Below are positions 1-36,682 of a stretch of 37,564 nucleotides of DNA, piece after piece. The stretch is from positions 1 through 37,564 of IMG/VR virus record IMGVR_UViG_2684622670_000021; one strand, given 5' to 3'. The stretch comes from a virus. Its lineage: Duplodnaviria > Heunggongvirae > Uroviricota > Caudoviricetes. Each line of letters opens with the position of its first letter. Position 1 is the first letter of the stretch. A program made the position numbers and the translations under genes. Under the pieces are notes generated by a model, which was not told where the DNA came from, did no database searches, and saw only the letters and a program-made list of their open reading frames with translations.

Positions 1-1164
1 TTACACATCATTAGTACCTTCCTTATTTTTTGACTGGGACAAATTTGGGACCGATGGGTTCAGGATCGAGTCTATTTGCCGTGCGTGTTCGGTAAGGTGA
101 TTAGGTGCAAGGTGAGCATATCGACGAACCATTTCGATAGACTCCCAGCCTCCCATTTCCTGTAACACTGACAACGGGACTCCGGCTTGAACCAGCCAAC
201 TTGCCCAGGTGTGTCTCAAGTCGTGAAATCTGAAATCATCAATACCAGCCCGTCTCAGCGCCGCTTTCCAGGCTGTGTTTGCGTCATACCGCATCTTCCT
301 GACTGTTGGCGCTTTCGTTCCGTCTGGTTTGGTACAGCTTTCCTTGTACACAAATACCCAACGGTGATGATTCCCGATTTGTTTTTTCAATACGCGACAT
401 GCAGTATCATTCAGCGCAACGCCAATTGCGCGGTTTGATTTACTCTCTTCCGGGTTTATCCATGCCACCCGGCGCTGCATATCTATTTGTTGCCATTCAA
501 GGTTGATGATGTTCGAGCGTCTTAGGCCTGTTGCCAGTGCAAATTCAACAACAGACTTTAATGGCTCCGGACATTCATCAATCAGCCTTTGTGCTTCATG
601 GGGCTCCAGCCAGCGGATCCGTTTATTCTTTGGTTGGGGCACTTTAATAATTGGTGCCTTATCCAGCATTTTCCATTCACGCTCTGCGGCTCTTAGTAGG
701 GCCTTTATAAATGAAAGATGCGTAGCCTTCGTTGCAACGGACGCTGGTTTTGGCGTGTATTCTGGAACAGGTTTCCCTTTTTTTCTGCATGCTTCTGCCC
801 TGAGTTTCCAGTTTTCCTCATGACGCCGGTTCGTCATTTTCTGCATTGCTGAATAAATTTTTGATTCAGTAATGTCTCTTAGTTGCATTCCTGCGAAATG
901 TTGAAGCCAGAATCCGATCCGGCTTTTGTCATCGTCCAGTGATTTTTTATGTGCTTTCTCTTCAAGCCACCTGACACACGCTTCCTCGAACGTTATATCA
1001 GGTATTTCACCAAGTTTGCTGACCCGCCATGCTTCAGCCTTTAGCTTGTCATGGAGTTCTGTCGCCTGCCTTTTGTCCTTTGTTCCAAGAGACTGTTTAA
1101 ATCTTTTACCGTTCGGCAATGTGAAACTGGCGTACCATATTTCACCTCTGCGGAAGAGTGACAT
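1..1164 (-). CDS. int: Tyrosine site-specific integrase (P22-like Int)
   Basis: 387-aa ORF with the C-terminal tyrosine-recombinase signature ([15 protein letters not shown]...VRRYAHL); N-terminus [22 protein letters not shown] matches P22-type Int from memory. Sits at the prophage edge with its 3' end at the window start. Confidence 0.9.
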
Positions 1165-1391
1165 TTTCTTTCCTCTGTTATGCCATCACCCGCGCTCACC
1201 TGGACAGTATGCAGCGGAGACTGAAGAGCCGCAATGCAGGCTTGTCGTGTTGTGAGGTAAGGAGATTTATTCTTAGTGGGATCTTTGCGTGTTGCCTGAA
1301 GACGCCCTGTGCGTATCCAGTTAATGGCAGTCGGTCTGGATATCTTGAGAAAATGACAGGCCTCATCGAGTGTGAGGCTGTATGGCTCCAT
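1041..1391 (-). CDS. xis: Excisionase (Xis)
   Basis: Internal ATG at 1391 shares a TAATG overlap with the stop of the upstream ORF. Product [36 protein letters not shown] is a P22-like Xis DNA-binding fold; 3' end overlaps int as in lambdoid phages. Confidence 0.7.
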
Positions 1392-1696
1392 TATTTCACC
1401 TCTTGCTGTGACATTGTTGAAAAATGGATACCAGCTCGTTGCTGCCAGACGATCCAACCGAGAGTCATATCCCATGCCATGTATTCGTTATCGCCGTTTT
1501 TTGCTCTCCGACGATCTACTAAGTCACCGAAACGCTTTTCCATGAATAATTCATAAGCTTCGCGTTCATCTGGTTCTACTTCCAGAGATAGGAGTGCGAT
1601 TTCATAAGCACGGCGCTCAATATCGTCTCGCACGTCAAGGCTGCTGATACGCTCTTTAATTTCTTTAATCAGTTCTTTGTCGGTAAAAGTGGTCAT
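1391..1696 (-). CDS. Hypothetical early-left protein (101 aa, YfdT-like by size and context)
   Basis: ORF translationally coupled to its neighbours (ATGA/TAATG overlaps); acidic protein-like composition. Homology not verifiable here. Confidence 0.5.
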   Translation of the reverse strand: MTTFTDKELIKEIKERISSLDVRDDIERRAYEIALLSLEVEPDEREAYELFMEKRFGDLVDRRRAKNGDNEYMAWDMTLGWIVWQQRAGIHFSTMSQQEVK

Positions 1697-2058
1697 TATG
1701 CTCCAGCCTCCGGTGCTTTTGGCATTACTGCCCAGTGAGTGATATTGACGTTTTCAAGGTCCCCGACCTGAAATGTCCACTGCCATTCTCCGGTTTCTTT
1801 TTGTCCCCAGGTGTACCAGAGAGAACGCCAGCCAATTAGCCAGCCTTCTCCGTTAGCATCGAATAACAAAACACTTTCATTTGCTGGTGGCAGTTCAGTT
1901 GACACTGGTATTACTTTGTTTTCCTGTGCTGCACATTTAGCTTCAAGCGCATCGAATTTACGCACTAGGTATTCAGCATCTGTTTCATTTACTTTCAGAT
2001 CTCGCGGTACACATCTCCCACGAAGAAACCCTTCCATTTCGAAAACATTCATGCGCAT
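1696..2058 (-). CDS. Hypothetical early-left protein (120 aa, YfdS-like by size and context)
   Basis: ORF in the leftward operon; stop overlaps the start of the downstream gene. Confidence 0.5.
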   Translation of the reverse strand: MRMNVFEMEGFLRGRCVPRDLKVNETDAEYLVRKFDALEAKCAAQENKVIPVSTELPPANESVLLFDANGEGWLIGWRSLWYTWGQKETGEWQWTFQVGDLENVNITHWAVMPKAPEAGA

Positions 2059-2585
2059 TTGCGTAACTCCGATAACTCGTTAAAGCGTTCCATAAACATC
2101 CCGTAGGCATGGCCCGGAGCCAGTGGAATCACGTTGAACATCTCTGTTGCCGGGATACCTTCCAGTACAGGCCAGAAAGAGCCATCATCAAGCCCGAGAT
2201 CGCGGCGTTCGGTTGCCAGCATGATGAGATCGGCATATTTCACGGGCGTACTCATAACTGGGGGTAACCCGTATTTCTCACGGATTACGGCGTCTATTTT
2301 TTCTTCCATTTGTTTATAGTCAGGAAGAAGGCGTTTCAGTGGTGCGGGAATGTCCTGGCAATACGCTTCTGTTGCATCATGCATTAACGCTTCAAAAGCA
2401 AATTCCTGCGGCACCAGCTGGCTGCAAAGAACCGCATGTTGGGCGACGCTGTAGAAGTGCGAAAGATGACCGGCAAAGCGACAGATATTTGAAAGGGAAA
2501 CCGCGATATCGTTAATATCGATGTCGTCTTTATTTATCCTGTCATAATAAAAATGCTTCCCGGAAAAAGTTTTAATAAATGACAT
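2049..2585 (-). CDS. HD-domain phosphohydrolase (YfdR-like 5'-deoxynucleotidase)
   Basis: H...HD...E motif (AQHAVLCSQL...LMHDATEAY). Start placed at the ATG preceded by GGAGAA rather than the upstream ATG at 2612. 178 aa, matching CPS-53 YfdR from memory. Confidence 0.6.
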   Translation of the reverse strand: MSFIKTFSGKHFYYDRINKDDIDINDIAVSLSNICRFAGHLSHFYSVAQHAVLCSQLVPQEFAFEALMHDATEAYCQDIPAPLKRLLPDYKQMEEKIDAVIREKYGLPPVMSTPVKYADLIMLATERRDLGLDDGSFWPVLEGIPATEMFNVIPLAPGHAYGMFMERFNELSELRKCA

Positions 2586-2712
2586 TTTGTTCTCCACGTA
2601 TATGCGCTGCACCGCGCTGAATTCTGGTAAAAAGAATCCCTCACCATCCGGCGATTATTGAGTAAATTACGTTTCCATAAATGCCCCCGCAGGGGCATTT
2701 GCAGTAATGAAA

Positions 2713-3537
2713 TCAGGCGGTGAAAGTACCAATAAATGTTTCTACTTTGCTGTCCTTGAATTTCTCAACAAGCAGATCACGAAATTCGTTAGCCATTTCT
2801 TCCTGCACCGCCTCCAGCTGAATAATGCGTAGAACCAGTACAGGACGATCGCCAGTGATAATACTGAGGCGTAATTTAAACGGACGTTCTTTCAGACCTT
2901 CAAACGGAACGCATTTAAATTCAAATGCCACTGGCATAATGTCTTTGGTCTTCGCTTCGACAGACTCCATCAGGGAGCGTTTGCCGCTGAAGTCATTATC
3001 TTCAAAATCAGCGGTCTGGTTTGCTTCAATCGTGATTTTACGGACAGCCGCAGCCGCTTTTGTTGCCTGAATAGCGTCACCATTAGCATCAAAGCCCACA
3101 AGATAGTCGGCCCAGTCTTCAATCCATTCTGCCAGTGACTTCTGGGAGTTACGCTCGCCGTTAACAGACAACAGAGCAGAGAACGGTGCTGTCTTTTTCA
3201 GTTTGAGTGTGGCGGTGTTATCTGCGTGACCTGGTTCATCAATAGTACCCAGGTTAAGCACACTGACGGCACGCATATTATCAGCATCGATAAAGCAGCG
3301 GGTGCCTTCATCTGCAAGATCTTTAGAATAACGGGTAAAGTCATCGATGCTGGCAGTGGAAAGCGCACCACGGAAACGGAAGCGATTTAAATTAAATTTT
3401 TCCAGATCATGAATGCGGAAATTCTCAGGCAATGCCACAGCATCGGCACCAATCTTACTGATAATTTCATTAACACCCTGAGCAGAAATAAGGGCATGGA
3501 TTTGATTAATTGCGGTTGCGTCTAAGTTCTGAGACAT
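2713..3537 (-). CDS. DUF2303/YfdQ-like prophage protein
   Basis: 274-aa ORF in the leftward early operon; size and sequence character recall the YfdQ family of CPS-53-type prophages. Function unknown. Confidence 0.55.
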
Positions 3538-3602
3538 AATAAGTCCTCACTATATAAAGATATTCAGTGATGAGATAAATAATCAGTTAATTAAAAACGA
3601 TA

Positions 3603-3965
3603 TTAACGACCTGCTGCGCGGAGTTTTCCGTCAGGTTCACCGGCAAGAGTCAGTAACTGTCCCTGGTCTTCCTGCAGAATAGTCAGGCGACCACCGCGAT
3701 TGACATACATCGGCGTTTCGGTGGTGTCTTCTTCGGAAATTTTCCCGCGGTTAGTCGGGCGAACATATGAGAGTTTGTGTTTGATTTTCACTCGGTTCTC
3801 ATCAAACGGTTCGATTTCCAGGTTGAGCGAGACCTTACCTTTGGTTTTCGTGTTCATCACACCTGAAGCGACTTCACTGAGAACTGCGCCGATTTTGGTT
3901 TCAAATACGCCGCCGTCCAGCTCCCCGATAAATGCCTGCACATCAGTACTGCGTTCGCTAGCCAT
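3603..3965 (-). CDS. Hypothetical early-left protein (120 aa)
   Basis: Start chosen at the ATG preceded by AGGAG (MASERSTDVQAF...). The longer 226-aa ORF extends into GC-rich sequence that does not look protein-coding. Confidence 0.5.
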   Translation of the reverse strand: MASERSTDVQAFIGELDGGVFETKIGAVLSEVASGVMNTKTKGKVSLNLEIEPFDENRVKIKHKLSYVRPTNRGKISEEDTTETPMYVNRGGRLTILQEDQGQLLTLAGEPDGKLRAAGR

Positions 3966-4433
3966 TTTGCTGCTCCTCATCATATCGACCCTGCAAGGTC
4001 GGTTAGTTTCTCCACAAAACAGAGAAGAACACCTGCGGTGACTGCCGCCCGGATGGATTGGGTTATGAGCCCGTCGTCCGGTGATGCTCTTCTCTGTTTT
4101 GTAAAAAGGACGGTACCAGCCGGAAGCAAGGGTACAAGCTGGTACCGCCAAGACTACACACAGCATAAAGTTGTGGTGCCGGGTGCCTCCCGGTGCCTGG
4201 CGAAGGTTGCACACCAGGCGGGTGGGTATCCACAGAAGGTCGACTGTCAGCCTCAACCTTAACCCGCGTGCGCTGAGCCGCATTCACCACAACGCTAAGG
4301 ATTCTCTCTGGTTGAAAATACTTAGCTGTTATGTGCCTGCTTTTAGCCACATCAGGCGAGGTGGACCTAGTTATTCCCCAACAACAAGGATTCGGTTAAT
4401 CTGGTTATCCCCAACAACGCAAAAGGAAAAGAA

Positions 4434-4868
4434 ATGTCCGGTAATATCTATACGCTGTACAAATCCCACTGTGAAAATGTTGGAAAGTATCGGGGCATTG
4501 AAATCAGTGGGGTAGTGTCATCAGTCGAAATAAGCAAAGTTGAATCAAGGGCAACATTACTTACTCTTTTGGACCTTGTCTTACATGAGTACCGGAAGAA
4601 ATTCGGCACTCCCTATAATCAGTTGAATGGGAAAAAGGCTCTGGTTCACCTTATTCTGATGAAGCATCACTGGATGCCAAAACAGATTAATGAGATGAAA
4701 TTTGATGAACTTCTTCTTTCAATTCAGGATGAACTCACACTTGATAAAATAAGCGTAACCGCCCAGAAATTTTTAGATTATCGAGACTGGAGATCACAAA
4801 TTCATCACTTTGATGATTTTGACGAAAATGAATGGGATCCTAATTTGTCTGCACAATATCTAAAGTAA
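4434..4868 (+). CDS. Hypothetical protein (144 aa), rightward moron within the leftward early operon
   Basis: Strong SD (AAAAGGAAAAGAA then ATG); AT-rich relative to neighbours; opposite orientation to surrounding pL-operon genes; two 15-bp direct repeats immediately upstream. Confidence 0.5.
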   Translation: MSGNIYTLYKSHCENVGKYRGIEISGVVSSVEISKVESRATLLTLLDLVLHEYRKKFGTPYNQLNGKKALVHLILMKHHWMPKQINEMKFDELLLSIQDELTLDKISVTAQKFLDYRDWRSQIHHFDDFDENEWDPNLSAQYLK

Positions 4869-5046
4869 CATCCTGTGATAAAACCGTGATTTCCTGATCC
4901 AGTTTTTTTAAGGAGTCTATTGTTTCCTGTCGATAAGACAGCACTTCACGAAGCTGGTTTATAGCTGCCAGCTTCTTTGTCATCCACTCATAAATTTCCT
5001 CATCTGTGTAGCCAGGCGCGACGATTTTGGGTTCTGTTTTGTGCAT
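4840..5046 (-). CDS. Hypothetical small protein (68 aa), first ORF downstream of pL
   Basis: ATG preceded by AGGAG; 3' end overlaps the convergent 144-aa gene by 29 bp. Not arginine-rich, so not obviously an N-type antiterminator. Confidence 0.4.
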   Translation of the reverse strand: MHKTEPKIVAPGYTDEEIYEWMTKKLAAINQLREVLSYRQETIDSLKKLDQEITVLSQDVTLDIVQTN

Positions 5047-5105
5047 TTCACATCTCCTCAAGTTATCAGTTACTTGTTGATGGGGACCAGATTGTTAAAG
5101 AGCTA

Positions 5106-5131
5106 AGCGTCCTGTAGGGCGCTTTTTTGTT
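5106..5131 (+). terminator. Intrinsic terminator (7-bp GC stem, tetraloop, T5 tract)
   Basis: AGCGTCC-TGTA-GGGCGCT followed by TTTTTTG on the + strand; no T tract on the complementary strand. Confidence 0.5.
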
Positions 5132-5294
5132 GCTAACGAATCATCCTGGACTTCATATGCCCCAGGCGGCTACTTCGTGGGCGTCCTGCCTGTTCGTTTT
5201 TGACATTTACTGACTGCTTACGACACATGCACCGTGTTGCAACCAGATTTTGTTGTAATCCTGTAGTTGGTCTGGAACAAAAGATAAAATTAAA

Positions 5295-5331
5295 TTGCGA
5301 TATATGCAAGTGATGTTTGCGAAATATGCAA
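5295..5331. promoter_or_regulatory. OL operator region: two 15-bp sites TTGCGATATATGCAA and TTGCGAAATATGCAA
   Basis: Two near-identical imperfect palindromes (TTGCG-N5-TGCAA) 22 bp centre to centre, left of cI where pL/OL is expected; the same motif recurs in the cI-cro intergenic region. Confidence 0.5.
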
Positions 5332-5340
5332 ATTTATAGG

Positions 5341-5365
5341 TAATAAAAAGCCACCTTTCGGTGGC
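5341..5365 (-). terminator. Intrinsic terminator downstream of cI
   Basis: Hairpin GCCACC-TTTC-GGTGGC followed on the minus strand by CTTTTTATTA, about 20 bp after the cI stop. Confidence 0.5.
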
Positions 5366-5385
5366 CGATGGATGGGATATTGAGG

Positions 5386-6078
5386 TTAATTATGTCTCTT
5401 AAGGGTTTGCGACTGACTGATTAAGACCTTTCCAAAGACCATGAATCGGTGTTCGTTTTCGCTAGTAATTCCCCATTCACGGTAAATCTGGTTATCAGAA
5501 ATCACCAGCAGTTTGTCAGGAATCATTTGAAGTCTTTTAACGTATATTTTGTCATCAAAACCAAAGACATATATACCATCACCATCAAACTGATTGATGC
5601 TGACATCAACGAAGATGAGATCTCCTGGCTCAATGGTTGGACACATACTGTCCCCACGAACGTTGATAACTTTGATGTGATTGGCTGGTCGTCCGCCGAA
5701 CATTGATACAGCATTATCAGTTCTGTATTCGATGGCATGAATCACATCAATGACATCACCGCCCTGGATAAGGCCATTTCCCGCACTGGCACTGATATCC
5801 AGCATTTCAATACGGAACACATCCTTCACCTGCGCAACATCCTCATTATTACTGTTTTTATATACAGTATTACTTTTGTGGGCAGAGGTAAAGAGATCAG
5901 CAATATCAACACCTAAGCTCTTGGCAATATTACTCAGTGTTTGTTCGGTAAATTGTTTTTGCTTACCCGTTTCTAAGCGCGAGATGTTCGCCGCATCTAC
6001 TCCTATTGCTTCAGCGAGATCGGCGATTTTCATGTTCTTCGCTTGGCGAAGTTGTCTGACTCGGTTTCCTATGTTCAT
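5386..6078 (-). CDS. cI: Prophage repressor cI (HTH plus S24 LexA-like peptidase domain)
   Basis: N-terminal XRE-type HTH (QLRQAKNMKIADLAEAIGVDAANISRLETGK); C-terminal S24 motifs (Ala-Gly site in SASAGNG, catalytic Ser in GDSMCPTIEPGDLIFVD, downstream Lys); divergent from cro. Confidence 0.9.
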   Translation of the reverse strand: MNIGNRVRQLRQAKNMKIADLAEAIGVDAANISRLETGKQKQFTEQTLSNIAKSLGVDIADLFTSAHKSNTVYKNSNNEDVAQVKDVFRIEMLDISASAGNGLIQGGDVIDVIHAIEYRTDNAVSMFGGRPANHIKVINVRGDSMCPTIEPGDLIFVDVSINQFDGDGIYVFGFDDKIYVKRLQMIPDKLLVISDNQIYREWGITSENEHRFMVFGKVLISQSQTLKRHN

Positions 6079-6098
6079 GCGTTTATTACATTTCTTTA

Positions 6099-6165
6099 TT
6101 GCGTGATAAGCAAATCAACTTGCGCAAAATAATTGCGTGAAATAACATGCATAACGCGCAATATT
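6099..6165. promoter_or_regulatory. OR operator / pR-pRM region
   Basis: Contains TTGCGTGATAAGCAA (6099-6113, same motif as OL), the palindrome TTGCGCAA (6120-6127) and further TTGCG/CGCAA half-sites between the divergent cI and cro starts. Confidence 0.5.
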
Positions 6166-6175
6166 TGGAGGGCAT

Positions 6176-6436
6176 ATGCAATCACTATTACGAAATGTGC
6201 GTAAGGCGCATGGTTTCACTTTGCAGCATGTTGCTGCGGGTGTTCAAGTCAATCCAGCGACGTTGAGTCGTATTGAGAGGCTGGAGCAGATTCCATCTAT
6301 CGAGCTTGCAGAACGTTTAGCCAATTTTTTTAAGGGTGAAGTCAGCGAAATGCAGATTCTTTATCCGGCACGTTTTCAATCTAGCCAAAACCAGAATGGG
6401 TTTAAACCACAGGAACAGGAGGTGAACCGTGGGTAA
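6176..6436 (+). CDS. cro: Cro-like HTH regulator
   Basis: 86-aa ORF divergent from cI with SD GGAGG; HTH (FTLQHVAAGVQVNPATLSRIERLEQ). Confidence 0.8.
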   Translation: MQSLLRNVRKAHGFTLQHVAAGVQVNPATLSRIERLEQIPSIELAERLANFFKGEVSEMQILYPARFQSSQNQNGFKPQEQEVNRG

Positions 6437-6980
6437 GCATCACTGGAAAGTAGAAAAACAGCCTGAGTGGTACGTGAAAGCTGTCAGAAAAACTATCGCA
6501 GCGTTGCCGGGGGGGTACGCTGAAGCTGCTGACTGGCTGGATGTAACAGAGAACGCATTATTTAACCGCCTTCGTGCCGATGGCGATCAGATTTTCCCGC
6601 TGGGATGGGCAATGATTTTGCAACGTGCTGGTGGAACTCACTTCATTGCTGACGCTGTGGCGCAGTCTGCAAATGGCGTCTTTGTGTCTCTTCCTGACGT
6701 CGAGGATGTGGACAACGCCGATATTAACCAGCGCCTGCTGGAAGTCATTGAACAGATCGGCAGTTATTCAAAACAGATTCGTTCAGCAATTGAAGACGGT
6801 GTAGTGGAACCGCATGAGAAGACAGCAATTAACGACGAGCTGTACCTCTCAATTTCGAAGCTGCAGGAGCATGCAGCACTGGTCTACAAAATTTTTTGCA
6901 TTTCAGAAAGTAATGACGCCCGCGAGTGTGCAGCTCCGGGCGCCGTGGCGTGTCGTGACTGTGGAGAAACTAACGCATGA
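6429..6980 (+). CDS. CII-like regulatory protein (phage 186 CII / CP76-type), tentative
   Basis: GTG start with AGGAGG SD immediately after cro; position and size fit a CII-type activator. Family assignment is from memory only. Confidence 0.5.
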
Positions 6981-7315
6981 ACAGTTTAACAACACACTAC
7001 CGTCGCTCGCAACTGATTGCGCTTCCTGTACCGGGTGGAAAAGCGAAGGTGGAGTATTGCTATGCAGTAAATGTACCAGGTGACAGGGAAATTGTAACCC
7101 ACAGCTTTGCAGAGTGGGCTGTGGGTGATTTCAACCGGCAGAAGGAGACAGTCCTTTGCGACAAGTTAACCGCTGGTTCAAAGATCACTACGGAGTGCCC
7201 GTCAGAGTCATTCGTTGGGAGCCGGAAACACAACGGGTTATCTACCTCCGCGAAGGCTATGAGCATGAGTGCTTCAGCCCGCTCGAACAGTTTCGTCGTA
7301 AATTCAGGGAAATAG
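6977..7315 (+). CDS. Hypothetical protein, possibly frameshifted
   Basis: ATGA-coupled start. The N-terminal ~60 codons look protein-like but the C-terminal half is low-complexity, while an overlapping frame (7156-7335) encodes a protein-like peptide ending at the next gene's start. Confidence 0.35.
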
Positions 7316-7324
7316 AGGTCGGTC

Positions 7325-8266
7325 ATGAGCACTAAATTAACCGGCTATGTATGGGATGGTTGCGCTGCATCAGGCATGAAATTATCCAGCGTGGCAATTA
7401 TGGCCCGCCTGGCTGATTTCAGTAATGACGAAGGTGTGTGCTGGCCATCAATTGAAACCATTGCCCGCCAGATTGGCGCGGGGATGAGTACCGTCAGAAC
7501 GGCTATCGCACGGCTGGAAGCAGAAGGCTGGTTAACGCGTAAGGCGCGTCGCCAGGGTAACCGCAATGCGTCGAATGTTTATCAGCTTAACGTTGCGAAG
7601 CTTCAGGCAGCGGCATTTTCTCAACTGTCAGATTCTGACCCGTCAAAATCTGACGCATCAAAATCTGACCCGTCAAAATTTGATGCGTCGAAATCTGGCA
7701 AAAAAGCGGGTTTTCACCCGTCAGAATCTGGCGGGGATCCGTCAGTAAAATCAAAACATGATCCGTCAGATAAAAAAACTTCTCGTCCGGACGCTTCGCA
7801 ACCGGACACGCAGACGGATGAACAGGATTTTTTAACTCGCCATCCTGATGCGGTTGTATTCAGCCCTAAAAAGCGCCAGTGGGGAACGCAGGATGATTTG
7901 ACCTGCGCACAGTGGCTCTGGAAAAAAATCATCGCCCTGTACGAGCAGGCCGCCGAATGTGACGGCGAGGTGGTTCGTCCCAAAGAACCGAACTGGACAG
8001 CCTGGGCAAACGAAATTCGCCTGATGTGTGTGCAGGATGGTCGTACTCACAAACAAATCTGCGAGATGTACAGCCGCGTCAGCCGCGATCCGTTCTGGTG
8101 CCGTAACGTGCTCAGCCCGTCGAAGCTGCGGGAAAAATGGGATGAGCTTTCCCTGCGCTTATCGCCGTCCGTAAGCACGTACACCGAAAAACGCGAAGAC
8201 CCGTACTTCAAATCCAGTTACGACAACGTGGACTACAGCCAGATCCCGGCAGGATTCAGGGGGTGA
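7325..8266 (+). CDS. Replication initiation protein (O-like) containing the iteron array
   Basis: 313-aa ORF with an N-terminal winged-helix-like segment, internal iterons encoding SDSDPSKSDASKSDPSKFDASKS, and a C-terminal domain; position corresponds to lambda O. Confidence 0.65.
   Translation: MSTKLTGYVWDGCAASGMKLSSVAIMARLADFSNDEGVCWPSIETIARQIGAGMSTVRTAIARLEAEGWLTRKARRQGNRNASNVYQLNVAKLQAAAFSQLSDSDPSKSDASKSDPSKFDASKSGKKAGFHPSESGGDPSVKSKHDPSDKKTSRPDASQPDTQTDEQDFLTRHPDAVVFSPKKRQWGTQDDLTCAQWLWKKIIALYEQAAECDGEVVRPKEPNWTAWANEIRLMCVQDGRTHKQICEMYSRVSRDPFWCRNVLSPSKLREKWDELSLRLSPSVSTYTEKREDPYFKSSYDNVDYSQIPAGFRG
7626..7731. repeat. Iteron array (candidate replication origin) inside the O-like gene
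   Basis: At least six tandem copies of a ~14-bp unit CCGTCA(A/G)AATCTG(A/G), followed by an A/T-rich stretch at 7745-7785; the same layout as lambda ori within O. Confidence 0.55.
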
Positions 8267-8757
8267 TCATGAGTCTGTTAAATGACGTTCAGAAATTCAT
8301 TGAAGCCCATCCGGGGTGTACTTCCGGAGACATTGCGGATGCTTTTGCTGGTTACTCACGGCAGCGCGTTCTGCAGTCAGCAAGCAAGTTACGTCAGAGT
8401 GGGCGTGTGGCTCACCGTTGTGAAGGGGATACACGCAGACATTTCCCGCGCCTGACTGAGAGAGCGCAGGAGCCGGAACCACAACCAGTTCGTGAAACCA
8501 GACCTGCGCGCAATTTCTATGTCGGCACTAACGATCCCCGGGTGATTTTGTGCCTGACCCGCCAGGCGGAAGAACTGGAGTCAAGGGGCTTATACCGTCG
8601 TGCTGCAACCGTGTGGATGGCGGCATTCCGTGAAAGCCACTCCCAGCCAGAACGAAACAATTTTCTGGCGCGTCGTGAGCGGTGCTTACGGAAAAGCAGC
8701 AAGCGCGCTGCATCGGGTGAAGAGTGGTATCTGTCAGGGAATTACGTGGGGGCTTAA
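8263..8757 (+). CDS. Hypothetical protein (164 aa), possibly regulatory (PerC-like C-terminal segment)
   Basis: ATGA-coupled to the O-like gene; C-terminal AEELESRGLYRRAATVWMAAF resembles PerC-type regulators. Low confidence. Confidence 0.45.
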   Translation: MIMSLLNDVQKFIEAHPGCTSGDIADAFAGYSRQRVLQSASKLRQSGRVAHRCEGDTRRHFPRLTERAQEPEPQPVRETRPARNFYVGTNDPRVILCLTRQAEELESRGLYRRAATVWMAAFRESHSQPERNNFLARRERCLRKSSKRAASGEEWYLSGNYVGA

Positions 8758-9410
8758 TGAGTAATAAATATTGCCAGGCGCTGGTGGAACTGCGGAATAA
8801 ACCAGCCCATGAACTGAAGGAAGTGGGAGATCAGTGGCGCACGCCGGATAACATTTTCTGGGGAATTAACACCCTGTTTGGTCCGTTTGTTCTGGATCTG
8901 TTCACTGACGGTGATAACGCCAAATGTGCCGCGTATTACACGGCGGAAGACAACGCGCTGGCGCATGACTGGTCAGAACGTCTTGCGGAGCTTAAAGGTG
9001 CTGCCTTTGGTAATCCCCCATACAGCCGCGCCAGTCAGCATGAGGGGCAATACATCACCGGCATGCGTTACATCATGAAGCATGCCAGTGCCATGCGTGA
9101 TAAAGGCGGGCGCTATGTTTTCCTGATCAAAGCTGCCACCAGCGAAGTGTGGTGGCCGGAAGATGCAGACCATATTGCTTTTATTCGCGGGCGTATTGGT
9201 TTTGAACTGCCTGTCTGGTTTATCCCGAAAGACGAGAAGCAGGTGCCGACAGGAGCGTTCTTCGCTGGTGCTATTGCTGTTTTCGATAAGACCTGGAAGG
9301 GACCGGCAATCAGCTACATCGGGCGCGATGAACTTGAGACATGTGGTGAGGCGTTTCTGGCGCAGGTTCGCCAGCAGGCGGAAAAACTGGTCAGGGAGAT
9401 GGCGGCATGA
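8757..9410 (+). CDS. Phage DNA N6-adenine methyltransferase (Dam family)
   Basis: Catalytic NPPY motif (FGNPPYSRA); TAATG-coupled start (MSNKYCQALVELRNK). Confidence 0.8.
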   Translation: MSNKYCQALVELRNKPAHELKEVGDQWRTPDNIFWGINTLFGPFVLDLFTDGDNAKCAAYYTAEDNALAHDWSERLAELKGAAFGNPPYSRASQHEGQYITGMRYIMKHASAMRDKGGRYVFLIKAATSEVWWPEDADHIAFIRGRIGFELPVWFIPKDEKQVPTGAFFAGAIAVFDKTWKGPAISYIGRDELETCGEAFLAQVRQQAEKLVREMAA

Positions 9411-9733
9411 CGACATTAACTCAATGCCAGCAGCAGGTGCTGGATATGCTGATTTCTTATCAGAAAGAACGTGGCTTCCCGCCAACCAATCAGGAGGTGG
9501 CTACCATGCTGGGATACCGTTCGGTGAATGCAGCGGTGGAGCATCTTCGCGCACTGGAGAAAAAAGGCGTCATCACGATAAAGCGTGGCGTGGCACGGGG
9601 GATAACGCTTCATACCGCGGTGAAGGACGACGACAGCGAGGCGGTCGGGATTATCCGCTCACTGCTTGCCGGTGAGGAAAACGCCAGGCTGCGTGCAGCC
9701 CACTGGTTACATGAGAGGGGCCTGAAAGTATGA
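9407..9733 (+). CDS. LexA-like winged-helix DNA-binding protein
   Basis: 108 aa; N-terminal region resembles the LexA DNA-binding domain (LTQCQQQVLDMLISYQKERGFPPTNQEVATMLGYRSVNAAVEHLRALEKKGVI); no peptidase domain. Confidence 0.5.
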   Translation: MTTLTQCQQQVLDMLISYQKERGFPPTNQEVATMLGYRSVNAAVEHLRALEKKGVITIKRGVARGITLHTAVKDDDSEAVGIIRSLLAGEENARLRAAHWLHERGLKV

Positions 9734-10119
9734 AGCTGATCCTGCCTTTTCCGCCCAGCGTGAACACGTACTGGCGACACCCCAACAAAGGGGCGTTTGC
9801 TGGTAAGAGCCTGATAAGCGCGGCGGGGCGCAAATTCCAGAGCGCGGCGTGTGCAGCAATAGTTGAGCAGTTACGTCGTCTGCCAAAACCAACGTCGGCA
9901 CCTGCTTCAGTGGAGATCGTGTTGTTTCCTCCGGATAACCGGATCCGCGATCTGGACAACTATAACAAGGCGCTGTTTGACGCCCTGACCCACGCGGGTG
10001 TGTGGGAAGACGACAGTCAGGTGAAAAGAATGCTGGTGGAGTGGGGACCGGTTATCCCGGAAGGGAAGGTCGAGATCACTATCAGTAAGTACGAGAAACC
10101 GGCGGGTGCAGCCGCCTGA
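9730..10119 (+). CDS. rusA: Holliday junction resolvase RusA
   Basis: 129-aa ORF starting MKLILPFPPSVNTYWRH with the conserved acidic residues (DLDNYNKALFDAL) typical of RusA. Confidence 0.85.
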   Translation: MKLILPFPPSVNTYWRHPNKGAFAGKSLISAAGRKFQSAACAAIVEQLRRLPKPTSAPASVEIVLFPPDNRIRDLDNYNKALFDALTHAGVWEDDSQVKRMLVEWGPVIPEGKVEITISKYEKPAGAAA

Positions 10120-10138
10120 TTAAGAGGAGAAACGAAGT

Positions 10139-10936
10139 ATGAATAATCTGATGGTTATTGATGGTATTGAAGTTCGTCGTGATGCTTATGGGCGTTACAG
10201 CCTGAACGATCTGCACAGGGCTGCCGGTTCTCTGGATAAACATAAGCCTGCATTCTGGCTCCGCAATGAGCAAACCGAACGTTTAATAAGCGAGTTGCAG
10301 ATTTGCAACTCGGTCAATATAGCGCCAGTTAACGTTATTCGTGGCGGAAATAACCAGGGGACGTATGTCTGCAAAGAACTGGTGTATGCCTATGCAATGT
10401 GGATCAGCCCGTCATTCCATCTGAAGGTGATCCGTACTTTCGATATGGTAACCAGCACACCGGAAAAATTATCCGGGCAGGCTGCTGACAAGATGCAGGC
10501 TGGCGTGATCCTGCTGGACTTTATGCGCCGGGAGTTAAACCTGTCTAACTCTTCAGTGCTTGGTGCCTGTCAGAAACTCCAGGAGGCTGTTGGCTTACCG
10601 AATCTGGCACCGCGCTATGCCATTGATGCTCCTGCTGACGCGCCTGATGGCTCAAGCCGCCCCACGCTGTCACTGAGTGCACTGCTGAAGCAGTATGGTA
10701 TCTGCCTGACAGCTAATCAGGCATATCACCAGATGGCGAAGCTGGGGATCGTTGAACAACGCGAACGATACAGCCGTACCGCGATTAACAACATCAAAAA
10801 ATTCTGGTCGCTGACGGCGAAAGGCTGCATGTTCGGCAAGAACATCACCAGTCCTGCAAATCCGCGCGAGACGCAGCCGCATTTCTTCGAATCCCGATTC
10901 CCTGAGCTGTTAAAGCTGCTCGATACCGTTCATTGA
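10139..10936 (+). CDS. KilA-N domain protein (antirepressor-like)
   Basis: N-terminus (MNNLMVIDGIEVRRDAYGRYSLNDLHRAAG...FWLRNEQTERLI) is typical of the KilA-N DNA-binding domain. Confidence 0.7.
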   Translation: MNNLMVIDGIEVRRDAYGRYSLNDLHRAAGSLDKHKPAFWLRNEQTERLISELQICNSVNIAPVNVIRGGNNQGTYVCKELVYAYAMWISPSFHLKVIRTFDMVTSTPEKLSGQAADKMQAGVILLDFMRRELNLSNSSVLGACQKLQEAVGLPNLAPRYAIDAPADAPDGSSRPTLSLSALLKQYGICLTANQAYHQMAKLGIVEQRERYSRTAINNIKKFWSLTAKGCMFGKNITSPANPRETQPHFFESRFPELLKLLDTVH

Positions 10937-34832: not shown

Positions 34833-34850
34833 CGCGGTTTTATTTATTTT
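34818..34850. terminator. Bidirectional intrinsic terminator between the tail module and the acyltransferase gene
   Basis: AAAACCGCGC-AATA-GCGCGGTTTT with A4 upstream and a T-rich tract downstream; both convergent genes stop within or beside it. Confidence 0.55.
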
Positions 34851-35947
34851 ACTGCTAAAATTCGTTTTCTTAGCATCAGCTCTAAAGGCTCCTCAACTAA
34901 TTTATAAAGTATGATTGAGACTATGGTTATTATAACAAGGAGCGCTATTAAATAGAGTGGTCCGGGGTTATGTCCAAAGATTTTAAAGCAAAATAATATA
35001 ATGGGTTGATGAATTAAATAAAAAATAAATGATGATTTCCCTAATAGCTCTAGGGTTTTTGAACTGAGGATAGTATGAATGACTCCATTTCTTAGATAGA
35101 TGCATGAAGTAAAGAATATTACCATGGGGAGTAAATAATATAACGAATAACGTAGACTATTATTTATGTTGTTGCTATAATATATAGCTATTAGCAGAGG
35201 TAATAGTGAAATTAAAAACAAAAGGCTGTCGGCTGTCGGCTGTCGGCTGTCGGCTGTCGGCTGTCGGCTGTCGGCTGTCGGCTGTCGGCTGTCGGCTGTC
35301 GGCTGTCGGCTGTCGGCTGTCGGCTGTCGGCTGTTTTTCCAGCAAGCGTAAATAATCATGCCGCAAATAAATTCTACCAAGCGGCTTACTGGGAATATAT
35401 AATATAACCAGTGATTAAGTTCTTCTGTTTGTATAATTTTTAAAAAATATATAGTTAATAGTAGAGTTATAATTGATATTGCAGTGATTACTTTCTTTGT
35501 AATTGATGTATAAATCAACGGAATAAACATTAAATAAAAAAACAGCTCATCAGACAAAGACCATGATACACCATTTAATGAGAAGTAGTAATCCTCCTTT
35601 GGTATCCAACTTTGCATTAATAAAATATTTGTTAAGGTTTTTGAAAAATCAAAGTTCTTTAAGTGAATGGTTAGTAAAATAAATGGCATGGCTAATAATA
35701 GATGCATTGGAACAATTCTTGCCAATCTTAAAAGAATAAACTGTCTTTTACTTGTTACTTCATTTTTTAGCTTGTCTTCATATGAATATGAAAGAATGAA
35801 GCCAGATAAAATAAAGAAAAAGGAAACGCCAATAAATCCCTGGGAAAACATTTCTTTTACAAAAACACCAAAATAGTCTGTATTTAAATGGCATAAATAA
35901 ACCATTAATGCAGCTATAAATCTGAGTCCTGTTAAGTGGCGAAGCAT
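34844..35947 (-). CDS. Acyltransferase family 3 integral membrane protein (Oac-like) with in-frame heptapeptide repeat
   Basis: Multi-TM protein with the N-terminal acyltransferase-3 motif (RHLTGLRFIAALMVYLCH); ATG at 35947 preceded by AGAGG (track start at 35977 is TTG); very AT-rich; prophage-terminal position like oac/gtr loci. Confidence 0.75.
   Translation of the reverse strand: MLRHLTGLRFIAALMVYLCHLNTDYFGVFVKEMFSQGFIGVSFFFILSGFILSYSYEDKLKNEVTSKRQFILLRLARIVPMHLLLAMPFILLTIHLKNFDFSKTLTNILLMQSWIPKEDYYFSLNGVSWSLSDELFFYLMFIPLIYTSITKKVITAISIITLLLTIYFLKIIQTEELNHWLYYIFPVSRLVEFICGMIIYACWKNSRQPTADSRQPTADSRQPTADSRQPTADSRQPTADSLLFLISLLPLLIAIYYSNNINNSLRYSLYYLLPMVIFFTSCIYLRNGVIHTILSSKTLELLGKSSFIFYLIHQPIILFCFKIFGHNPGPLYLIALLVIITIVSIILYKLVEEPLELMLRKRILAVK
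35224..35334. repeat. Tandem heptanucleotide repeat (GGCTGTC)x15 plus partial copy, inside the acyltransferase ORF
   Basis: Counted directly: 15 perfect GGCTGTC units (35224-35328) plus GGCTGT. On the coding strand it is (GACAGCC)15 encoding five SRQPTAD heptapeptides. Confidence 0.95.
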
Positions 35948-36682
35948 CAATAACCTCTTGTTATGAAGATAAAGCAATTCAAAAGAGGCATTTTATGACT
36001 GTAGGGGATTGGTGTCTATATGAATGAGTAATCTGGTTTTTAAAATCTTCTTTAATTACAAAATAAACCTTTCTTAGGCTATAGATTTGTGGCTGTAACA
36101 CTGTGTGTCCACGACATTGAGACATCCTTCCGCTTTGCTATAGATGTGGAATTCAGGATCAAGCGATATCGGACTCATCCTCAGCACCACCCGGTTAATC
36201 TGGATAACGGGAGAAGGGAAGCGCTGCCAGAAGATGATGATGGTTACAGTTCTGCACTGGCTATTCTGCACTGGCTATATTCGTGGTGATCACTTACATA
36301 ATTAATGACGCCAGGAATACGGAGTTTGATGATTGCCTGGTGATGTGAGAAAAAACTCATACACACAAAGCTTTGCACTGGATTGCAAGGCTTTGTGCTA
36401 TTCGATAGCACGAGTTTGAATGAAAATCAGCCGTTATCGATTTTACGTATTTTTGTATGAGAGGATTTTTACCTCCTCCCACCGATCCTCCATAACTTTA
36501 CGACACTGTCTCTAGGACTGCTATGTGCCAAGAGCGGAATTTTCTAATATTATGCTGCATTCGTTTAAGGGGAGCAGATCAGCTAACGACTCCTACGTCC
36601 TGGGGAAAGGTCACATATGCTAAACAGCAGCTCAGCAAAGAGAAGAGCGAATTTGGTAACGGGAAACCGTTATGATATGAAT

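Follow-up and report, generated by a model that had tools for sequence, protein, structure and literature searches.

A predicted replication origin built on 15-bp-phased iterons inside the initiator gene of an SfIV/SfII-like lambdoid phage

Where does replication begin in a lambdoid phage whose initiator resembles lambda O in one half only? The question is raised by a 37,564-nucleotide virus record (IMG/VR record IMGVR_UViG_2684622670_000021, positions 1 to 37,564; "the window" hereafter denotes this whole stretch), which contains, at 7325-8266 of the + strand, the gene of a 313-amino-acid (aa) protein labelled 'replication initiation O-like' (phrog_391, E=1.3e-135). A first-pass annotation had described iterons and an A/T-rich tract inside this gene and proposed that, as in lambda, the initiator binds iterons lying within its own coding sequence. 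Every computational test available supports such a lambda-like origin, by virtue of the repeat structure, the conservation at the DNA level, the co-variation of the repeats with the N-terminal domain, the place of the repeats within the gene and the relationship of the C-terminal domain to that of lambda O. It is highly probable, in our view, that 7613-7810 serves as the origin of vegetative replication, this segment lying in the part of the initiator gene that codes for the linker.

The repeats were found at the expected place within the O-like open reading frame (ORF) by both Tandem Repeats Finder and a motif search, and the accompanying translation, SDSDPSKSDASKSDPSKFDASKS, proved correct. 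Tandem Repeats Finder reported a period of 15 (also 30) and 4.3 copies at 7634-7697, while CCGTCAAAATCTGAC, allowing up to 3 mismatches, matched the + strand at 7625, 7640, 7655, 7670, 7685 and 7718, with two further matches on the - strand, a consequence of the palindromic nature of the units. The 8 matches are all confined to 7625-7734, the rest of the 37.5-kb window, promoter regions included, having none; the chance expectation is 1.2 matches, and 8 were reached by none of 100 shuffles. The units are thus genuine repeats, as first described, but their period is 15 bp (5 codons) instead of about 14 bp. Likewise, of the 'at least six tandem' units previously announced, six copies do exist but only the first five, at 7625-7699, stand in tandem. 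The sixth, CCGTCAGAATCTGGC at 7718-7732, is displaced by an 18-bp spacer (7700-7717) made of a run of six A followed by GCGGGTTTTCAC. Each 15-bp unit encloses a 13-bp dyad, GTCAGA-N-TCTGAC. The context preceding the sixth unit, TTTTCACCC / TTTTGACCC, is seen again in relatives, and in Proteus- and Pectobacterium-type loci the whole sixth-type unit repeats at 33-bp spacing. The array also varies in length: near-identical phages carry 4-7 tandem copies, and among phages with a protein-identical N-terminal domain (L008-L087, IMG/VR relatives) the linker measures 215, 230, 245 or 260 bp from anchor to anchor, the lengths given by 4-7 tandem units of 15 bp, so that copy number is polymorphic in whole units and the frame is preserved.

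Several minor features of this segment were recorded. The sixth unit reads CGTCAGA-A-TCTGGCG at 7719-7733 and thereby shares both 7-nt half-sites with the palindrome CGTCAGA-GAAT-TCTGGCG of the lambda origin (lambda 39160-39177; positions 1161-1178 of L007). The lambda palindrome stands just to the right of the A/T-rich tract of the origin, whereas the sixth unit stands to the left of the A-rich tract; the common half-sites may survive from a common ancestor of the segment that precedes the shared C-terminal domain. A terminator-like hairpin, CGGGTGAAAACCCG followed by a run of T, is present on the - strand at 7707-7720, in the spacer between units five and six. Its stem is not kept in Klebsiella or Citrobacter relatives, so the hairpin is probably incidental. 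Folding 7620-7790 as single-stranded DNA gave z = -5.2, a value that merely mirrors the dyads and was not retained as a sign of any specific hairpin. An RNA element was also discarded, the sole Rfam match in a scan of 6000-9500 being mir-5880, whose 30.7 bits fall far below the gathering score of 97 and are due to the palindromic repeats.

Repeats of five codons within a gene could be nothing more than the by-product of a slippage-expanded, low-complexity linker, the DNA itself having no function. The array (aa 101-136) does encode a linker between the DNA-binding and C-terminal domains, with (D/A)PSKSD repeated and an abundance of Ser, Asp, Pro and Lys, the A-rich units that follow encoding about aa 138-153. 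Both the in-frame units of 5 codons and the whole-unit copy-number variation among near-identical phages are what slippage yields. To this explanation we nevertheless give hardly any credence, for peptide coding does not account for every unit being a DNA palindrome, and the synonymous positions are far more conserved than those of the flanking domains, across genera. This was established on 79 loci encoding relatives of the N-terminal domain (60-100% identity; one genome per species across Enterobacterales), completed for the motif counts by the window and 3 phages to give 83 initiator loci. With up to 1 mismatch allowed, the motif TCARAATCTGA was counted 312 times in the linkers (23 kb in total) versus 20 times in 438 kb outside, and a stricter form of it 192 times inside the linkers and never in 442 kb outside; of 362 pairs of adjacent copies among the relatives, 248 show a spacing of 15 bp. 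When S[K/E]S tripeptides were picked by peptide alone (n=232), the first Ser was found to be encoded by TCA in 199 and the second by TCT in 176, compared to 16% and 9%, respectively, elsewhere in the same genes, while Lys was AAA in 144/144 cases and Glu GAA in 88/88. By comparison, the conserved Ser, Lys, Glu and Asp residues of the N-terminal domain share the window's codon in only 38-51% of cases.

Two further observations weigh against a mere by-product of the linker. The Asp-Pro codons are opposite depending on the DNA element in which they fall, Asp being GAC in 81/85 cases within the iterons and GAT, creating GATC, in 140/151 cases in the A-rich units. Moreover, Stx2_KH16-043 (L004) and L148 each retain one motif copy in a different frame, where it encodes ..QNLT.. 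and not ..SES... An unbiased sliding profile of codon identity at conserved residues, computed on 52 non-redundant relatives, delimits the proposed origin to the approximately 200 bp of elevated synonymous-site conservation at 7613-7810: codon identity is 0.32-0.50 over 7325-7612, 0.63-0.89 over 7613-7810 and 0.44-0.52 from 7811 onwards. The contrast in codon conservation with the flanking domains of the same genes is large, and the data support conservation of the iteron array at the DNA level beyond the demands of coding.

Which protein, then, would read the repeats? Comparison of mosaic phages points to the N-terminal domain of the initiator (aa 1-99, 7325-7621, + strand), here presumed to be the iteron reader. 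Citrobacter phage phiNP and Yersinia phage YeP3 keep this domain together with the iterons while their C-terminal domain is different, that of phiNP being Phg_2220_C, and Stx2_KH16-043 keeps both alongside a third C-terminal type. The reciprocal arrangement is found in mEp460_4F5, which matches the window at 97% nucleotide identity over the remainder of the gene from about 7770 and carries another N-terminal domain with another array (23-bp period, 5.4 copies). The repeats also change with the recognition helix of the N-terminal domain, which is a further argument against a linker by-product. In a sister clade (Erwinia, Mixta, Edwardsiella and one E. coli record) sharing approximately 62% identity in the N-terminal domain, the recognition helix is TTVSAA or STVKSA (vs STVRTA) and the wing GGRN (vs GNRN), and 15-bp-phased TCAA-NNN-TTGA repeats are found with no type-1 repeats, although GATC-led A-rich units and the GC-rich right edge are kept. 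Repeats and N-terminal domain thus travel together and change together, behaving as one specificity module in the manner of classical lambdoid hybrids. Truncated copies of the domain also exist: in L137 and L163 (E. coli chromosomes) a stretch 99% identical to initiator aa 1-79 runs on into unrelated sequence, and L168 (OR902851.1), a 15-kb circle resembling an excised e14-type element and carrying icd, mcrA and a hin-like invertase gene, encodes a 114-aa truncated relative. These three copies are probably prophage remnants.

The same comparisons bear on the suggestion that the repeats are bound by some other protein (a host factor, or a CII-like or PerC-like regulator) and constitute a regulatory element. 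Two helix-turn-helix regulators are indeed encoded next door, and binding by the initiator is itself a prediction from sequence. We find such a regulatory element very unlikely, for the motif is, within the window, confined to the initiator gene, follows the N-terminal domain through mosaics whose neighbours differ (in the upstream genes, or by absence of the PerC-like gene) and changes with the recognition helix and wing of this domain.

The initiator is a composite protein by sequence. Its N-terminal domain is a predicted winged helix, matching Pfam HTH_36 (PF13730) over aa 23-70 (E=4e-11) and, more weakly, GntR, MarR, PaaX and DnaD_N, with MarR-family structures as best sequence matches in PDB. 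In the Pfam scan the initiator has no match to Phage_rep_O (PF04492), a family to which lambda O scores 5.7e-36 with the same library. The C-terminal domain (aa 170-277; 7832-8155, + strand) is homologous to that of lambda O: BLASTP aligned the initiator with lambda O at 31% identity over 216 aa (E=4e-26; core aa 170-277 versus lambda 175-270) and tblastn at 35.6% identity over aa 131-277. In terms of sequence, the initiator is thus half a lambda O, the C-terminal domain matching and the N-terminal one not. A single-sequence AlphaFold2 model, in which aa 100-162 lack regular structure, was uninformative, its mean pLDDT being 43 with no confident part.

Downstream of the iterons, the A/T-rich stretch reported earlier does exist, though it is modest, its lowest 40-bp GC content being 0.275. 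It consists of an A-strand-biased tract at 7736-7783, the presumed DNA-unwinding element, formed by two 24-bp direct repeats, GATCCGTCAGTAAAATCAAAACAT and GATCCGTCAGATAAAAAAACTTCT (repeat pair D7), each led by GATC. The minimum, at 7742-7781, is the lowest 40-bp value in the initiator gene and goes with a positive AT skew. The GATC sites are at 7736 and 7760, 24 bp apart, and among relatives the GATCC unit is present in 79/82, in two copies in 59, with a GATC-to-GATC spacing of 24 bp in 68 cases. Family-wide, the GC content of the tract is 0.25-0.40 and that of its flanks 0.54-0.66. Two GC-rich 15-bp direct repeats, CTTCTCGTCCGGAC and CTTCGCAACCGGAC (repeat pair D10; 7779-7807), form the right edge of the constrained zone. 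GATC-containing A/T-rich repeats lie next to initiator binding sites in oriC (the 13-mers) and in the P1 plasmid origin, and the tract described here is alike in bearing GATC within A/T-rich repeats, while it has no sequence similarity to them and is not accompanied by DnaA boxes. The GATC density of the tract region is 10.1 per kb, compared to 4.1 per kb overall, the sites and their spacing are kept across genera through the position-specific use of GAT (not GAC) for Asp, and a phage Dam gene lies 1 kb downstream of the pair. A phage-encoded Dam as obligatory partner of these sites was rejected, a Dam or MT-A70-like gene being found with the queries used in just 36/82 loci; Dam is present in all these hosts anyway. 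It is a possibility that a GATC pair in the predicted unwinding element puts initiation under Dam/SeqA control.

By analogy with lambda, we infer iteron binding, tract unwinding and origin activity as follows. Rightward early transcription from the Cro-side promoter would yield the 313-aa initiator, dimers of which would bind the five or six 15-bp-phased dyad iterons through their HTH_36 domains and assemble a nucleoprotein complex. This complex would destabilise the adjacent A-rich tract at 7736-7783, and the lambda-O-like C-terminal domain, together with the tail of the protein, would recruit the DnaB helicase of the host to the opened tract.

The layout is that of lambda in several respects. 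Both phages carry the origin in the initiator gene itself, where the linker joining the DNA-binding and C-terminal domains is encoded (annotated iterons at aa 117-145 of the 299 aa of lambda O; repeats at aa 101-136 of 313 here), and in both it consists of direct repeats with internal dyad symmetry followed by a promoter-distal, A-strand-biased A/T-rich tract, and travels with the N-terminal domain in mosaics. It differs in that the N-terminal domain is HTH_36 in place of Phage_rep_O (PF04492), that the iterons are 13-bp dyads in a strict 15-bp phase and in 5+1 copies whereas lambda has four 18-bp sites 20-24 bp apart, that the tract is made of GATC-led 24-bp repeats whereas the lambda tract contains no GATC, and that a P gene is missing and the C-terminal tail is DnaT-like instead of the ...TDWIYGVDL of lambda. 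All the sequence-level features of a lambda-type in-gene origin are present, and the P partner that goes with the lambda O family is absent.

This absence leads to the gene that follows the initiator. The first-pass annotation had treated it as a partner in replication, which does not hold: the 164-aa product of 8263-8757 (+ strand) is like a PerC-family regulator (Pfam PerC PF06069, E=8e-9; phrog_1324, 'transcriptional activator') and is no analogue of lambda P or DnaC. The gene is probably not part of the replicon, being absent from relatives in which Dam directly follows the initiator (phiNP and Klebsiella phage 1 are without it). Related initiators are differently equipped. A lambda P homologue (PF06992, E=3e-58) follows the initiator in L154-L160 and an IstB/DnaC-like ATPase (PF01695) in Stx2_KH16-043, and tblastn detected DnaC-like genes after eight further loci, L147-L152 included.

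A number of points weigh against an origin at 7613-7810. Neither the early regions of the window nor the complete SfIV genome was found to contain a gene for P or for a DnaC-like or DnaB-like protein, and phage genes by themselves therefore do not make up a full lambda-like pathway. DnaA boxes (TTATCCACA, up to 1 mismatch) are absent from 7000-10200, the nearest being at 6707 and 6960 (window-wide there are 16, a number reached by 1 of 100 shuffles). The tract is weaker than that of lambda, where GC content goes down to 0.20 vs 0.275 here, and 4% of the 40-bp windows in the whole sequence have a GC content of 0.275 or less. The codon and motif counts given above ignore shared ancestry and concerted evolution within arrays. 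Finally, our literature search found no binding, unwinding or autonomous-replication data for this initiator family, and our plasmid search no clean minimal replicon built on the origin module.

Some of these points would suit a different role, in which the array is a binding site for the initiator serving chiefly autoregulation (as a roadblock), copy control or handcuffing, replication starting elsewhere or depending on recombination. Such a role is favoured by the lack of a helicase loader in the phage, by the modest character of the A/T-rich tract and by a Chi-rich window in which no Rec module was recognised, which fits a class of phages whose growth was proposed to depend on RecBCD-promoted recombination (PMC12315714). 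We think it unlikely all the same. The constrained zone includes the conserved, low-GC, A-biased repeat tract with GC-rich DNA on either side, as unwinding elements are usually built; its layout equals that of the experimentally proven lambda origin, and the initiator shares a homologous C-terminal domain with lambda O; and sister phages with a like array encode the lambda P or DnaC-like loaders directly after the gene, as expected of an origin-initiator-loader cassette. An in-gene origin thus remains the preferred reading of 7613-7810.

How could such an origin load DnaB in a phage lacking a loader? The last 12 codons of the initiator gene (8228-8263, + strand) encode a tail, ...VDYSQIPAGFRG, that matches the C-terminus of E. 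coli DnaT, which ends in ...SEPDSQIPPGFRG. SQIPAGFRG at the end of the initiator and SQIPPGFRG at the end of DnaT are equal at 8/9 residues, both being protein termini, and this peptide is probably the reason why such initiators are annotated as 'primosomal protein I'. A tail of the GFR[G/S/T] type is found in 44/82 initiators, none of which (0/44) is followed by a P or DnaC-like gene, while 16/38 initiators with other tails have a loader, all 16 loader-followed initiators thereby being without the DnaT-like tail (Fisher p = 5e-7, uncorrected for phylogeny). The tails of P-associated initiators resemble that of lambda O. Outside this tally there is one exception, L167, its frameshifted initiator having the tail and being followed by an annotated ATP-binding protein, a candidate loader. 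At least two C-terminal domains that are unrelated to each other bear the tail, the lambda-O-like one of the window and Phg_2220_C of phiNP. The likeness to E. coli DnaT is limited to the extreme C-terminal peptide, homology at the level of domains not being supported (hhalign probability 5%; PDB profile search without match); the initiator does not match Pfam DnaT (PF17948, a three-helix DNA-binding domain) even at E<=10. DnaT residues 154-179 contribute to cooperative binding of single-stranded DNA, the literature examined assigning them no further role. Tentatively, and with more doubt than confidence, we propose a loader-less replicon in which the peptide SQIP[A/P]GFRG, copied from DnaT, would plug the origin into the DnaT / PriA-PriB / DnaB-DnaC loading pathway of the host.

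Other systems of the same design are known. Gene 18 of P22 and gene 18 of phage L encode O-type initiators with their own mid-gene repeats, from which the origin was deduced comparatively (PMC8022706). Although these proteins are only distantly related O-type initiators, the design is the same as here (PMC8022706); the repeats differ, being four of about 20 bp in P22 and six of 11 bp, TGTCCAACGGA, in L (PMC8022706). P22 and L also encode a DnaB-type helicase (gene 12; PMC8022706), of which none was found in the phage described here. In the Stx phages 933W and P27, extra in-gene iterons lengthen the linker of the initiator and iteron number varies, Stx phages having six iterons vs four in lambda (PMC7466680). 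Such variation between related phages parallels the 4-7 tandem units of the present family. Unlike the initiator studied here, however, those of 933W and P27 belong to the lambda O family proper; their iterons are lambda-like, they have a P partner, and their binding was shown experimentally (PMC7466680).

Closest in gene content are the 'O-only' modules reported for phage LLS, mEp460_4F5 and 34/314 lambdoid phages (PMC12315714). By the definition given there, the replication module of the window is of this lambdoid type, with a single O-homologue gene, no helicase or loader and a high Chi content (PMC12315714). Replication of O-only phages was called 'not yet understood' and their origins were not described; for the class without a Rec module and with many Chi, reliance on RecBCD-promoted recombination for growth was proposed (PMC12315714). 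The window has the C-terminal half and the tail of the initiator in common with mEp460_4F5, the N-terminal domain and the array being those parts in which the two differ. No description of the present iteron family or of its origin was found in the searchable literature: the publication of the SfIV genome is silent on an origin, and the paper on the Stx 'Eru' replication regions concerns other modules. The origin as such follows the expected lambda/P22/L design, whereas the reading head and the iteron are new.

The module is also very common, occurring in E. coli, in prophages of Enterobacterales and in the serotype-converting phages SfII and SfIV. The 270-bp origin region 7560-7830 is found in 2059/5426 complete E. 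coli genomes (38%), mostly at 95% identity or more, its copies being almost all chromosomal and numbering up to 4 per genome. A predicted origin of approximately 200 bp and one 313-aa protein would make a minimal system for asking how DnaB is loaded without a phage loader, and two iteron types paired with two types of recognition helix, along with the tail variants, offer natural material for specificity swaps. Matches on plasmids are mostly prophages in megaplasmids or mislabelled chromosomes. Natural mini-replicons were considered as proof of autonomy and discarded, the OR902851.1 relative being truncated and the initiator of pZ1322PEC0161-2 frameshifted. The latter (L167, a 15,977-bp circular record) has at positions 1-9959 only a lambdoid immunity, replication and nin region, with type-2 iterons, the frameshifted initiator and the adjoining ATP-binding protein gene; this record may represent a plasmid of the lambda-dv type or result from faulty assembly.

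The source phage is an SfIV/SfII-like lambdoid prophage of the E. coli/Shigella type. Over the replication gene and the DNA around it, identity to the Shigella serotype-converting phages SfIV and SfII and to several E. coli phages amounts to 98.5-99.3%, the initiator gene itself being 99% identical at the nucleotide level to 'replication protein / primosomal protein' genes of SfIV and SfII. Upstream, a control region spanning 5386-7315 (phrog_101, phrog_1170 and Pfam matches) comprises a CI-like repressor gene on the - strand (5386-6078; Peptidase_S24 and HTH_3) and, on the + strand, a Cro-like gene (6176-6436; HTH_3), a CII-like gene (6429-6980; Phage_CP76) and a small ORF (6977-7315). Downstream of the initiator and PerC-like genes are the Dam methylase gene (8724-9410), a LexA-like gene and RusA. 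From CI-like to RusA, this gene order is that of a lambdoid early-right operon, so rightward transcription crosses the iteron array and origin region; a promoter scan revealed no promoter-like site inside the initiator gene.

Eleven Chi octamers (GCTGGTGG) are present in the window, where roughly 0.6 would be expected per strand. Nine are on the + strand (1883, 6627, 8780, 10032, 11169, 11440, 14002, 19422 and 25364) and two on the - strand (9136 and 11569); no recombination module was recognised among the early-left ORFs. Lastly, a perfect heptamer array, GGCTGTC in 15.9 copies (111 nt, 35224-35334, currently in frame), is located in an A/T-rich region inside the - strand ORF 34844-35977, an O-antigen-acetyltransferase-like gene (Pfam Acyl_transf_3 over aa 15-358). 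Since adding or losing a single 7-nt unit would put the gene out of frame, the array looks like a slipped-strand phase-variation switch on a putative serotype-modifying gene.

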